Source: Candidatus Omnitrophota bacterium (GTDB lineage Bacteria > Omnitrophota > Gorgyraeia > 2-01-FULL-45-10). From it: a stretch of DNA of 64,000 bases. Positions 6,803 to 17,187 of this stretch are shown here, piece after piece; the first letter of the stretch is position 1, and each line of letters begins with the position of its first letter. The stretch spans positions 40,047 to 104,046 of the forward strand of contig JAQUSB010000001.1 in the NCBI GenBank assembly GCA_028715345.1, written 5' to 3'. The position numbers and the translations under genes are program-made. The notes under the pieces were generated by a model that ran no database searches, had not been told where the DNA came from, and saw only the letters and a list, made by a program, of their open reading frames with translations.

Positions 6803-8203
6803 CTATCCCTTTCTGTCCTTTTCCAGGACCTTAATGAACGCTCTGACTACTTCAGGATCGAACTGGCTGCCGCTATTTGCGCTCAGCTGCGCTATGGCTT
6901 CGGCCTTATCCATGGTTTTCTGGTAACCTCTGTCCGATATCATCGCGTCATATGAATCCGCTACGGACACGATAGCGGCAAGAAGGCTTATCTTGCCGCC
7001 AGACAAGCCATCCGGGTAACCTTTACCGTCATACCGCTCATGGTGTTCTTTTATCACAGAGAGAAGCTCCGGATCGAGGCAGACCGGTTTCAATATCTCA
7101 GCGCCTATCGCCGGATGCTTCCGTATGGCGTGCCAGTCCTCGTCGCTCAAGACTTTTTTGCTCAATATCATTTCGTGTATGCCCAGCTTACCTATGTCGT
7201 GCAGGAGCGCGGCCTCTCGTAACAGTTCTATCCTCTCTTTCGACACCCCCATGCTCTCGGCGATCTTCACGGCGTACCCGGCCACTCTGTCCGAATGCCC
7301 TTTTGTGGACGGGTCTCTCGCTTCAAGGATGCGGATGAGCGATTGGACGGCGCGGTAAAAGTAGTCGAGGAGCGCTTCCCGGGCCTTGAACAGGTTCGCG
7401 CCCATTTTGTTAAAAGAATCCGCAAGCTCCGCTATCTCGTCCGAACCTTTGGCCGGCACTTTATACTTAAGATCGCCGGAAGATATGTGACGTGTCCCTT
7501 CGACCAGTTTTTTTACCGGAGAAACGACCCGCCCGGCGATGATAAACCCGAATGTGGCCGACAGTAATATCCCCAGTATCAGGACAAAAAAGGCGCGGCG
7601 CTCGGTCTCCTTTTCGGCAGCGTAAACATCGTCGGCCGCCATATCTATGCCTAAAACCGCTATGACATTGCCGTCACCATCGCGTATCGGGGAATAGCCG
7701 GAAAGAAAAACGCCCCACTTATCCGATATCATCTTCCTGTCGGCCGCGGGGGCGTCGAATGCCTTCAGCAGTTCCGGATAAGGCCGCGCGTCATATTTCT
7801 CGCCGGGGACCGCGGGCTCGGCGCCCGCAGCATAAGAACCCGGGTGAATATCTATCACGAATTGTAATATGCCGGGCGTCTCCGTTTTTTTGAGTATGTA
7901 CATATAGGCGAGCGAGGGCATGACCGATCTCATTTTAAGCAGTTCGGTTTCTATGACCCTGTATTGCGGGCTTGCCTGAGCGCTTCTGTCCATAGGTATA
8001 TCTGCCAGGGGGCGGGGATCGATCGTCATCGCTACGGCCCGGGCGACCGTCATCAATTTATCCCTGAGCTGGTTAAATTGGGTTTTGAGGGAATACTCGT
8101 ATATAAGGAAGTTGCTCAATACTGCCGAGAAACAGACCAGCAGTATAAGAGCTGCCGTAACTTTCGCGCGGAAACTTCTGAAAAATATAAAACGTTTATT
8201 CAT
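6803..8203 (-). CDS. membrane-anchored sensor HD-GYP phosphodiesterase (periplasmic sensor + HAMP + HD-GYP)
   Basis: 466 aa with N-terminal TM helix, periplasmic domain, second TM, HAMP region and HD-GYP catalytic domain (HSDRVAGYA...LLHDIGK...HHERYDGKGYP). Confidence 0.8.
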   Translation of the reverse strand: MNKRFIFFRSFRAKVTAALILLVCFSAVLSNFLIYEYSLKTQFNQLRDKLMTVARAVAMTIDPRPLADIPMDRSAQASPQYRVIETELLKMRSVMPSLAYMYILKKTETPGILQFVIDIHPGSYAAGAEPAVPGEKYDARPYPELLKAFDAPAADRKMISDKWGVFLSGYSPIRDGDGNVIAVLGIDMAADDVYAAEKETERRAFFVLILGILLSATFGFIIAGRVVSPVKKLVEGTRHISSGDLKYKVPAKGSDEIAELADSFNKMGANLFKAREALLDYFYRAVQSLIRILEARDPSTKGHSDRVAGYAVKIAESMGVSKERIELLREAALLHDIGKLGIHEMILSKKVLSDEDWHAIRKHPAIGAEILKPVCLDPELLSVIKEHHERYDGKGYPDGLSGGKISLLAAIVSVADSYDAMISDRGYQKTMDKAEAIAQLSANSGSQFDPEVVRAFIKVLEKDRKG

Positions 8204-8672
8204 TCAGATCCAGTTTTTCCAGTATTTTTTTATTGAATTCCTGCGCGTCGGGCGCGCCTTCGGCGGGTGCCCACGGCGCGAAGTGTTTGTCGGCCTTTTC
8301 GTCATACGGCCCGTCTTTAACCTCATAAAGGACAGAGCCGGGTTTCAGCGTAATAAAGGTATGCCATTTGCCCGGCGGTATCTCGACGGCTCTTACGCCG
8401 TGCGCAGGATCGAGGACTGCATGGTCTATGACGTTCCCATTGTCGTCAAATTCCACGACCACGACGCTGCCGTTCAGGATAATGAAGACTTCGTTCTTGT
8501 CGGGATTTTCGTGTTTGTGAGGTTGTATATATGTCCCGGGCTCGGCGGCGTTCAGGAGGCGCTGTACCACGTCATCGTAATTTTTGTGGAAATTGTAGTT
8601 CGTCCTCTTCCTGGGCGAGGCCTTCGCTTTGTCCGAAACCGTTCTTATAAGCTCTTCGGTCAATTTTATCAT
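8196..8672 (-). CDS. cupin-fold protein (WbuC-like)
   Basis: ATG at 8672 (MIKLTEEL...) lies just downstream of the tRNA. The longer track ORF reads through the tRNA exon and is rejected. Cupin His motif PHKHENPDKNEVFIILNG. Confidence 0.5.
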   Translation of the reverse strand: MIKLTEELIRTVSDKAKASPRKRTNYNFHKNYDDVVQRLLNAAEPGTYIQPHKHENPDKNEVFIILNGSVVVVEFDDNGNVIDHAVLDPAHGVRAVEIPPGKWHTFITLKPGSVLYEVKDGPYDEKADKHFAPWAPAEGAPDAQEFNKKILEKLDLNE

Positions 8673-8726
8673 ACAGGTCAAATTTGGCGTCCCTGGCCTG
8701 ATTCGAACAGGCGACCCTCTGCTTAG

Positions 8727-9208
8727 CTTACCGCACTGGATTACTCCAGCCAATGTTACGTTGCGGTCTGGACTATGTCTTCGCCATTTCAGGCGTGCAG
8801 CGTATAGTCTCTGAGGACTCCCATCCAAGCTTCAGATAATCATCGGCCCATTTTACGTGAAGGTTTTGATTATTTATGGTTTTCTCAAAACGTATTGCCT
8901 TCAGCGATGCATATTTAACTTGCAATTTAAATACATCGCCTGTTTTTGAGATAGCCACTACATCATACGGCTGATGCTCGGATAACGGAATGCATGGGAC
9001 ATAGCCCTTAACGGCTAAATCACCTATAACCTTTGCTACTCCGATATCTGCTTTTTCCTTCGTATGATGCAACCTTCACCTCCTTTCATTGGACCGAATT
9101 ACCTGTAGCTTTTATGGTTGCCTGCAAATTGCCCTGTATATGACAGGGGTTCCTTGCATACAGCCGCATCCATTCTATGCGTTTTATTCCGCATAGAAGC
9201 TCCCATTG
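8727..9208 (-). ncRNA. group I self-splicing intron inserted after U34 of tRNA-Arg(UCU)
   Basis: Intron follows an exonic U and ends in G. A 4-bp P1 (CUU|C with GGAG) has U.G at the splice site. P2 hairpin UCUAUGCG/CGCAUAGA. P7/R-like CAGAGACUAUA and S-like AAGACAUAGUCC elements, plus a P8 hairpin CGCC-UGAAAU-GGCG. Confidence 0.7.
8773..9072 (-). CDS. intron-encoded protein, putative PD-(D/E)XK-type homing endonuclease
   Basis: 99 codons with TTG start preceded by an in-frame TGA and a strong SD (AAAGGAGGTGAAGG). It lies inside the intron and its 3' end overlaps P7/P8. Motifs E...PYDVVAIS...FKLQVKY fit a D...(E/Q)xK nuclease core. Confidence 0.5.
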   Translation of the reverse strand: MHHTKEKADIGVAKVIGDLAVKGYVPCIPLSEHQPYDVVAISKTGDVFKLQVKYASLKAIRFEKTINNQNLHVKWADDYLKLGWESSETIRCTPEMAKT

Positions 9209-9263
9209 AAGGCAGATGCTCTATCCAGCTGAGCTACAGGGACGCACAAAATCTAAAATGAAC

Positions 9264-9340
9264 TGGTCGGGGCGGACAGATTCGAACTGTCGACTTCTTG
9301 GTCCCAAACCAAGCGCGCTAGCCAGCTGCGCTACGCCCCG
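9264..9340 (-). tRNA. tRNA-Pro (anticodon UGG)
   Basis: Reverse complement CGGGGCGTAGCGCAGCTGGCTAGCGCGCTTGGTTTGGGACCAAGAAGTCGACAGTTCGAATCTGTCCGCCCCGACCA. Anticodon loop TTTGGGA with G37 and CCA encoded. Confidence 0.85.
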
Positions 9341-9342
9341 TA

Positions 9343-9936
9343 TTATAAATACTTTTTCAAAAATTCGCGAACTTTTTTCAGCGCCTTCGAGCGGTGGCTC
9401 ATCCTATCTTTTACTTTAAGGCCGAGTTCGCCGAACGTTTCTTTGTATTTCGGTATAAGGAACAACGGGTCGTATCCGAAGCCGTATCCGCCCTTTTCGG
9501 AAAACGCTATCACCCCGGCACAGGACTCTTCCAGCACTTTCACTATCTTGCCGTTGTCGCATATCGCGACCGCGCATACGAATTTCGCCTGCCTTTTCGC
9601 GGGCGGGACATCAGCCAGGAGCTTCAGCAGTTTCTTATTATTCTGCTTGTCGCTCTTTCCCGATCCCGCAAATCTCGAAGACTTTACCCCGGGGGCGCCT
9701 CCTAAAGCTTTCACGACGAGCCCGGAATCATCGCCTACAGCAAGCCCGCCGGTAAATTTCGACACCGTCAGCGCTTTTTTGATCGCGTTGGCTTTAAAAG
9801 TCTTGCCATTCTCCACGATGCGCGGAGTATGTTTGAATTCTTTCAGCGAAACTACCCTGGCGCTTATCCCTTTAAGATACCGCCTGAGCTCATAGAGTTT
9901 TTTGTCGTTCTTTGTGGCTATAACAAGTTGGCGCAT
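9343..9936 (-). CDS. rdgB: non-canonical purine NTP pyrophosphatase (RdgB/HAM1 family)
   Basis: 197 aa with GFGYDPLF and SEKGGYGFGYDP motifs characteristic of dITP/XTP pyrophosphatases. Confidence 0.85.
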   Translation of the reverse strand: MRQLVIATKNDKKLYELRRYLKGISARVVSLKEFKHTPRIVENGKTFKANAIKKALTVSKFTGGLAVGDDSGLVVKALGGAPGVKSSRFAGSGKSDKQNNKKLLKLLADVPPAKRQAKFVCAVAICDNGKIVKVLEESCAGVIAFSEKGGYGFGYDPLFLIPKYKETFGELGLKVKDRMSHRSKALKKVREFLKKYL

Positions 9937-16771: not shown

Positions 16772-17187
16772 GGGGGTGAAAGGTTTCGACCCAGATGAGC
16801 AAAGTATAAGCAGCATGTAGAGGTTGCTAGGAGGCCTCTTTAAACACCTGGCAAAAAATCAAATGCTGAAAACGTAAAAGTTCCAGCAACGGTGAACGAA
16901 CTCCTAAGCACCATGCAAGTGGTGCCGGGGCCAGTTCTACCGGTAGCGTTACCTTTATAAGGTAACCCGCCAACCGGTCCTTCTCCTGCGGGGGCCGGAT
17001 TGACGACACACAGCAGGATGGCCCGGATCTTTTAGCCTTTGGAGGCCCGGGCGAGACTGACAAAGGATACCTCTTTGAAATTCCGCCTGTTGAAGTTCAC
17101 TGGGGGAAATCAAAGATCAGGCTAAACATGTAGCGGCTTATTCTTTGACGTTCGGGGACGCGGGTTCAATTCCCGCCACCTCCACCA
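16772..17187 (+). ncRNA. ssrA: tmRNA (transfer-messenger RNA, ssrA)
   Basis: 5' end is GGGGGUGAAAGGUUUCGAC. 3' end is GGACGCGGGUUCAAUUCCCGCCACCUCCACCA, a T-arm with acceptor 3' strand and encoded CCA. The acceptor pairs GGGGGUG with CACCUCC and carries the G3.U identity pair. It lies immediately downstream of smpB. Confidence 0.85.

Follow-up and report, generated by a model that had tools for sequence, protein, structure and literature searches.

A tRNA-Arg(UCU) gene of Candidatus Omnitrophota, probably split by a functional group I intron with a decaying endonuclease gene

We describe a tRNA-Arg(UCU) gene that is interrupted by 482 nt in a 64,000-nt stretch of a Candidatus Omnitrophota genome (assembly GCA_028715345.1, contig JAQUSB010000001.1, positions 40,047 to 104,046; this whole stretch is called the window). 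The explanation that best accounts for our observations, and that we hold with high confidence on the strength of sequence comparison, is that the gene is functional and is split between U34 and C35 by an IC3-type group I intron, which itself carries a decaying endonuclease gene. The host tRNA, the insertion site and the endonuclease family are all already published; what is added here is the Omnitrophota lineage, a visible series of decay stages of the endonuclease gene, and copies carried by phages in which an HNH endonuclease gene has been swapped in. Recognition of the intron also mends annotation, since standard tRNA finders miss the split gene and Omnitrophota genomes would otherwise seem to be devoid of their sole AGA-reading tRNA. 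Positions given below are those of the window, and the tRNA, the intron and its open reading frame (ORF) all lie on the minus strand.

The two halves of the tRNA had been quoted, 482 nt apart, in an original prediction made from the letters of the DNA alone, and both are present as quoted. The 5' exon (35 nt, 9209..9243), which reads GTCCCTGTAGCTCAGCTGGATAGAGCATCTGCCTT from 9243 to 9209, comprises the 5' strand of the acceptor stem, the D arm, the 5' strand of the anticodon stem and C32 U33 U34, and it was recognized by ARAGORN in the spliced as well as in the unspliced sequence. The 3' exon (42 nt, 8685..8726), CTAAGCAGAGGGTCGCCTGTTCGAATCAGGCCAGGGACGCCA from 8726 to 8685, was likewise recognized by ARAGORN and runs from C35 U36 A37 to an encoded CCA, so that the spacing between the halves is 9208..8727. 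Joined, they give a tRNA-Arg(tct) of 77 nt with a standard cloverleaf and a UCU anticodon, and an intron-tolerant ARAGORN run reports the gene in its split form, tRNA-Arg(tct) i(36,482); it is missed by default ARAGORN and by Rfam at gathering score. The window holds a single copy of exon half GTCCCTGTAGCTCAGCTGG, where 0 are expected by chance, thus the halves are not a chance match; the one similar stretch is the tRNA-Arg(CCG) gene at 600-675.

For comparison we gathered, via the intron ORF, 56 loci from species-representative genomes, together with the closer relatives L057 and L058. The long-intron mode of ARAGORN returned many spurious isotypes (Trp, Ser, Gly, Pyl) on related loci, and exon-half matching was used instead; it yielded 49 split tRNA-Arg(UCU) genes, that of the window included, seven of which hold natural ORF-less versions of the intron of 192-266 nt. 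The acceptor and anticodon stems co-vary across at least 33 species while the cloverleaf is kept. Since there is a C at both junctions in the window, the splice position could be read as 34/35 or as 35/36, with the same tRNA produced either way. Insertion at 35/36 was rejected, as it would leave a C at -1 and a C at the intron end; only 34/35 yields U at -1 plus a terminal G, and in seven relatives whose intron starts with U this position is unambiguous. In all 49 genes the intron is preceded by U (position -1), ends in G and is followed by C35, with which the 3' exon opens. The predicted cloverleaf and the predicted insertion after U34 thus both stand.

Some relatives depart from the common form of the split gene. 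In one Omnitrophota clade (L012, L013, L017-L019, L022, L023, L027, L028) the anticodon stem is CCUGC/GCCGG, with a U29-C41 mismatch in a split gene that is otherwise intact. In an Elusimicrobia metagenome-assembled genome (L021:2354-3053) the 5' exon ends in CCAU, not CCUU, which would put an A at the universally conserved U33; its guide is GAUGAG instead of GGAG, either a compensatory change of P1 in an odd tRNA or an assembly error.

That the insert (8727..9208; first nucleotide C, last nucleotide G) is a well-preserved group I intron is, we consider, very probable, as indicated by the pairing and covariation of its helices. These were mapped onto the window from the alignment of the ORF-less homologue L054, and pairs were counted over the 49 introns with the ORF excised; the helices were defined by hand, because RNAalifold cannot draw the P3/P7 pseudoknot. 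Controls in which the partner strand was slid gave 12-77% pairing for the helices counted (4-50% for P10), 12-65% for the set P2, P3, P4, P5, P7, P8, P9 and P9b, and 12-55% for the conserved core helices P3, P4, P5, P7 and P8. The core base pairs of the window copy are all canonical.

At the 5' splice site (P1/P10 region, 9200..9211), exon nucleotides C32U33U34 and intron nucleotide C1 (9211..9208) face the guide GGAG (9203..9200). This P1 helix, CUUC/GGAG, is 99% paired, with the U34.G wobble at the splice site in 49/49 introns. The UGG at 9205..9203 (UAG in most relatives) can pair with C35U36A37 of the 3' exon to form P10, which is 81% paired, against 4-50% in its slid controls, and as a short helix is weak evidence alone. 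The P2 hairpin (9173..9198; UUCUAUGCG / GAAUAAAA / CGCAUAGAA) is 98% paired, and 8 of its 9 pairs show compensatory double changes. P3 is formed by UGCGGC (9163..9168) and GCUGCA (8796..8801), the latter closing the P3/P7 pseudoknot; it is 99% paired, with 4 of 6 pairs compensatory. Within the P4-P5 domain (9123..9158), P4 (UGCAAG/UUUGCA, 9158..9153 with 9128..9123) is 100% paired and P5 (CCCUGU/ACAGGG, 9148..9143 with 9137..9132) 89%, both with compensatory changes, and RNAalifold and the minimum free energy (MFE) fold recover both helices.

The 5' strands of P6 (GG), P6a (CCAU) and a long P6b extension (AGCUACAGGUAAUUCGGUCCA) occupy 9090..9122 and pair with 8850..8815. P6 is 100% paired, but as a helix of 2 bp (GG/CC) it is indistinguishable from its own slid controls; P6a is 77% paired. 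Within P6b, the segment P6b2 (GUAAU/AUUAU) is 93% paired with AU<->GC changes, and the MFE fold forms the long helix. These two observations alone carry the long helix, the counts for P6b1 and P6b3 being low (61% and 42%), which we attribute to the poor alignment of the variable region beside the ORF. J6/7 and the 5' strand of P7 (8804..8814, UCAGA-GACUAU) are placed identically by the alignment to the Rfam model RF00028. With its 3' strand AUAGUC (8771..8776), P7 is 100% paired in 49/49 introns, and one compensatory change, AU->UA, was seen, in L041. The P8 hairpin (8782..8795, CGCC-UGAAAU-GGCG) is 100% paired with 3 of 4 pairs compensatory. The P9 domain (8731..8766) consists of P9 (CCGCA/UGCGG; 97% paired, compensatory changes present) around a variable arm and of P9b (CUGGA-GUAA-UCCAG), which is 100% paired with 5/5 pairs compensatory and has a GNRA loop in 49/49. 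The terminal G (8727) is likewise found in 49/49. The group I intron, and the assignments of P1 with its wobble, of P2, of P7 from an R-like and an S-like strand and of the last nucleotide, had all been proposed in the original prediction, and our counts bear them out; the P8 hairpin that it placed between the strands of P7 is indeed there, but the 3' strand of P3, and with it the pseudoknot, had been omitted.

Taken with the established group I pathway, from which its steps are drawn, this layout suggests how the gene would be expressed. The pre-tRNA would be transcribed, probably jointly with the tRNA-Pro gene upstream, and the intron would fold into a P1-P10 core in which the two ends of the loop that holds the ORF are brought close by the long P6b helix. 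Free guanosine, once bound in P7, would attack the phosphate after U34, held in the U.G wobble of P1 by the guide GGAG; the freed 3'-OH of U34 would then attack after the terminal G (8727), with the 3' exon aligned by P10. The product would be a mature tRNA-Arg(UCU), needed for AGA codons. The intron may be assigned to subgroup IC3 by analogy, as IC3-like: in Table S5 of PMC13011429, homologous introns at position 34/35 of Arg(TCT) are mostly labelled IC3, and two are labelled IB3.

Several points weigh against this explanation. A search of the whole window with RF00028 at its gathering score gave no match, and a permissive local search aligned model positions 1-253 to 9152..8747 with 19.5 bits (E=0.015), which is below that score. 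A literature search found no splicing experiment on an Arg(UCU) 34/35 intron. Another tRNA-Arg(UCU) gene, free of an intron, may lie outside the visible 64 kb. As to the first point, the gathering score of 50 bits is a detection cut-off, not a structural definition, and the score of the window intron is low because the insertion of the ~300-nt ORF is penalised; the ORF-less homologues L054, L052 and L055 score 55.2, 53.3 and 52.7 bits, above 50. The original prediction had named an RF00028 search as a check and the lack of a hit as a ground for discarding the intron. There is indeed no match at the gathering score, but a full-length local match exists below it, and the rule would have misfired.

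Further evidence comes from the surroundings of the gene. A tRNA-Pro(UGG) gene (9264..9340, minus strand; found by ARAGORN and Rfam) lies 20 nt upstream of the tRNA-Arg(UCU) gene, is a conserved neighbour and is probably co-transcribed with it. A split tRNA-Arg(UCU) gene directly after tRNA-Pro(UGG) recurs in many Omnitrophota, and upstream genes for RNase PH and Ham1 are a synteny common to the window, L057 and L058. That dozens of Omnitrophota species have the split gene at this same Pro-Arg position speaks for it as the copy in use. As had been predicted, there is no intron-free tRNA-Arg(UCU) gene in the window; ARAGORN reports Arg(CCG), Pro(UGG), Leu(CAG) and a tmRNA. Among the 18,016 codons of 57 long ORFs in the window, 132 are AGA, a share of 13.6% of the Arg codons, against 32% for AGG. 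The predicted need of splicing for reading AGA is therefore plausible, although its proof is beyond the reach of a 64-kb window.

The opposite view would be that the split gene is a dead relic, whose intron no longer splices while AGA is read by another tRNA-Arg(UCU) from outside the window. The small portion of the genome in view, the RF00028 score under the gathering threshold and an endonuclease gene that is already decaying would all fit it. However, the window copy shows no damage to core helices, guide, U.G pair, terminal G or GNRA loop, the exons make a perfect cloverleaf, and the 13% differences from L057 preserve pairing (for instance an A->G change in P3 that gives a G.U pair). Together with the recurrence of the same split gene in the same Pro-Arg position, this makes a relic exceedingly improbable.

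The intron holds an ORF which the original prediction did not mention. It encodes 99 aa (300 nt, 8773..9072) and is an internally deleted gene of a PD-(D/E)XK endonuclease of the I-Ssp6803I family; a Shine-Dalgarno sequence, AGGAGG (9079..9084), stands 6 nt upstream of its TTG start and is conserved as (A)AGGAGGUG in relatives. The predicted protein matches PF11645 (PDDEXK_5) with 49.7 bits (cut-off 26.1) over profile positions 1-80 of 138 only, and an identical NCBI protein is named 'group I intron-associated PD-(D/E)XK endonuclease'. A phmmer search of the PDB with the 99-aa sequence gave chance matches only, and the NCBIfam models matched neither this ORF nor a full-length relative. The profile of the ORF family matches the structure of I-Ssp6803I (2OST) with E=9e-6, and the AlphaFold model of a 152-aa relative, P0003 (pLDDT 74, pTM 0.71), has 2OST as its top PDB match (E=3e-9, TM 0.66). 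D37, Q51 and K53 are invariant in the ORF family, are kept in the window and align with the YD and QVK motifs of 2OST.

There are 228 homologues of the intron ORF, nearly all of 152 aa, and the deleted form of the window is the only such one. Protein alignment with the 152-aa relatives shows one clean in-frame gap of 53 residues (58-110). At the DNA level, the window and L057 are 87% identical apart from a single gap of 159 nt, that is 53 codons, in frame, with its junction at 8902..8903 (…GCATCGCT|GAAGGCAATACG…). According to the model of P0003 the deletion removes strands E62-64, E89-94 and E99-104, which leaves the ~150-aa fold incomplete in the window. The ORF is thus a remnant of a member of the PD-(D/E)XK family, not an intact one, and as three core β-strands are taken out, the endonuclease is probably inactive.

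The state of the truncated ORF also offers arguments against simple decay. The Shine-Dalgarno sequence and start codon are still there, as are the catalytic D...QxK and an open frame, the deletion is exactly in frame, and 24 synonymous changes from L057 stand against 10 non-synonymous ones; thus there may be a residual function. The 99-aa protein could then be a minimal nuclease, a DNA-binding or dominant-negative partner of full-length enzymes, or a splicing helper, kept by selection. We regard this as very unlikely. The loss of three β-strands of the PD-(D/E)XK core in the model and the uniqueness of this form among the homologues speak against it, the synonymous excess may predate a recent deletion, and relatives with no ORF or with nonsense codons show the intron to have no need of the protein. 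We also know of no maturase role in the PD-(D/E)XK I-Ssp6803I family.

A part of the ORF is, in addition, constrained by the ribozyme and not by the protein. The ORF sits in the terminal loop of the long P6 extension (the P6b loop), and the stretch 9110..9090, just upstream of the Shine-Dalgarno sequence, pairs with the ORF's own …WADDYLKL… codons (8850..8828); the 3' strands of P6b, P6a and P6 (8815..8850) are the same bases that encode …WADDYLKLGWES…. The last ~25 codons double as P6b', P6', J6/7, P7, P3' and P8, and the UAG stop (8775..8773) lies inside P7'. In comparison with L057 these codons show 0 synonymous changes and 1 non-synonymous change, while codons 1-57 show 21 and 7, therefore the constraint in the last ~25 codons is on the RNA. 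In relatives the ORF has two natural lengths, 151-152 aa where it reads on across the core and 135-136 aa where it ends shortly ahead of the core (the loci concerned with these variants and with the overlap are L004, L007, L010, L032, L033, L035, L040, L042 and L044). Since some relatives stop before the core and since the core-encoded tail is predicted to be disordered (AlphaFold model of P0003), this tail looks like incidental read-through.

This overlap bears on the question of whether a true group I intron of this kind would act autonomously or would need a host protein or an RNA chaperone in the cell. Ribosomes translating the ORF through P6', P7, P3' and P8 would open the core for a time, P1, with 4 bp, is short, folding of the core has to accommodate an ORF loop of 300 nt, and many group I introns need helpers in vivo. 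On the other hand, self-splicing is efficient in the compact IC3 introns that interrupt tRNA genes of Anabaena and Azoarcus, stabilising elements are conserved in the form of the P6b clamp and of P9b with its GNRA loop, and no candidate cofactor is encoded nearby. Dependence on a helper is, in our judgement, unlikely, and a self-splicing intron is the preferred explanation.

The relatives place the deletion of the window in a wider sequence of events. The endonuclease gene is intact in 29 loci, and shorter natural variants are also present. Decay set in independently in other loci: stop codons interrupt the gene in L029 and L030, a stop is combined with a deletion in L045, and the gene is absent in seven loci, one of which (L052) retains 3' remnants of the ORF as a P6b strand. 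The relatives thus form a clean natural decay series: intact, nonsense, internal deletion, gone. Homing endonucleases pass through a life cycle of invasion, fixation, degeneration and loss, and the window copy, to judge from its sequence, is at an intermediate stage of it. In its intact 152-aa form, an endonuclease of the I-Ssp6803I type would cleave tRNA-Arg(UCU) genes that lack the intron, at their anticodon region (…GCATCTGCCTTCTAAGCAGAGG…), and so drive homing. As the in-frame deletion took three core β-strands from this enzyme, the window intron has most likely become fixed and lost its mobility; it would persist because precise splicing renders it harmless.

Copies of the intron were also found on viral contigs. 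The core motif is present in 27 IMG/VR contigs (L059-L085), of which at least 17 carry a tRNA-Arg(UCU) gene split at 34/35; examples are L076:6059-6625, L085:8911-9465 and L070:1047-1544. The first of these lies inside an array of 14 tRNAs and adjoins a GIY-YIG gene, and the second is on a 67-kb contig with genes for ribonucleotide reductase, primase/helicase and thymidylate synthase. The intron ORF is of the HNH_3 type (PF13392) in L076 and L085 and of the PDDEXK_5 type in L070; within one intron lineage, the homing-endonuclease module thus appears to have been swapped. Phage-borne copies with a different endonuclease family suggest a route for transfer between phyla.

We put forward, tentatively and as the less probable alternative, that the tRNA-Arg(UCU) 34/35 intron is an actively mobile, phylum-crossing, phage-shuttled element and not a rare and mostly immobile relic. 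What speaks for mobility is that the intron occurs widely among Omnitrophota, Elusimicrobiota and Endomicrobiales, in most cases together with an endonuclease gene that is intact, that it sits in true phage tRNA arrays, and that its endonuclease has been exchanged (bacteria and some viral contigs have PD-(D/E)XK, other viral contigs HNH). If this were true, the window copy, with its internal deletion, would be one snapshot of the cycle of invasion, fixation, decay and loss, and the conclusion in the literature that bacterial tRNA introns seldom move horizontally would have to be qualified.

The original prediction had set the host tRNA apart from the bacterial group I intron hosts that it could name (Leu-UAA, fMet, Ile-CAU, Arg-CCU). 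The novelty thus suspected does not hold, since introns at Arg(TCT) 34/35, homologous to that of the window, are already listed in a survey of 4,934 complete bacterial genomes (PMC13011429; mSystems, January 2026). Its Table S5 gives group I introns at 'Arg (TCT) 34/35' in Bacillota (4), Bacteroidota (2) and Desulfobacterota (1), and the legend of its Fig. 6 mentions PD-(D/E)XK endonuclease genes in tRNA-Arg(UCU) introns of Bacteroidota and Campylobacterota. In Table S5, which is sorted by phylum, the sole Omnitrophota entry is a tRNA-fMet intron, and according to the abstract of the survey its splicing assays concern Patescibacteria Asn/Asp introns only. With the copy in the window, Omnitrophota join the phyla in which the Arg(UCU) 34/35 intron is on record; nothing in this upsets what is currently understood of group I introns.

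The published introns have the same host tRNA and the same site as that of the window, and share with it the guide (UAGGAGCC), P2, P3, the P7-P3'-P8(CCUGAAAUGG)-P7' arrangement and the P9 layout. They are collinear with the window intron and with the ORF-less L054, to which each is 61% identical over ~190 columns. A published Bacteroidota copy of 639 nt holds a homologous PD-(D/E)XK ORF, the visible part of which is 43% identical to the Omnitrophota endonuclease (E=2e-21). The P4-P6 region differs, with UGCAAG/UUUGCA in the window and UCGGUG/ACCGAG in the published introns, and so does the endonuclease gene of the window with its internal deletion of 159 nt.

Other known introns are alike in part. 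The tRNA-fMet intron of Synechocystis PCC 6803, which encodes I-Ssp6803I (2OST), is also a group I intron in a tRNA anticodon loop with a PF11645 endonuclease gene; its host, however, is tRNA-fMet(CAU), and it is inserted at 33/34. I-Ssp6803I is ~25% identical in sequence to the model of the 152-aa relative in structural alignment, and the window copy is truncated. The tRNA-Leu(UAA) intron occupies the same anticodon-loop position as that of the window, 34/35 after U34, in a different tRNA. An Acidobacteriota Leu(TAA) example has the same subgroup-type core, with aligning P7-P3'-P8-P7' and P9 regions and 53% identity to L054 over the aligned core. The classic tRNA-Leu intron is not known to carry an ORF.

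Minor observations were made in the neighbourhood of the gene. A scan of 8400-9700 for promoters and terminators on the minus strand gave nothing above chance. A small cupin/DUF6016 gene (8196-8660, minus strand) begins ~25 nt past the encoded CCA of the tRNA, and as there is no terminator-like site on the minus strand between them, the tRNAs may share a transcript with their neighbours. Several relatives, not the window, have short fragments that copy the first ~16 nt of the tRNA (…GCGCCTGTAGCTCA…), followed by a GC-rich hairpin and situated just upstream of the real split tRNA-Arg gene (L003:2276, L018:2226, L019:2223, L022:2224, L037:2165 and 2219). Three tandem 59-nt units of the same type precede a tRNA-His gene in L026 (3635/3694/3753). 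Finally, the tmRNA gene of the window (16772-17187, plus strand; RF00023, 172 bits) has an insertion of ~60 nt in its coding part relative to the Rfam model, and its predicted tag peptide is unusually long, with 31 aa (AENVKVPATVNELLSTMQVVPGPVLPVALPL).

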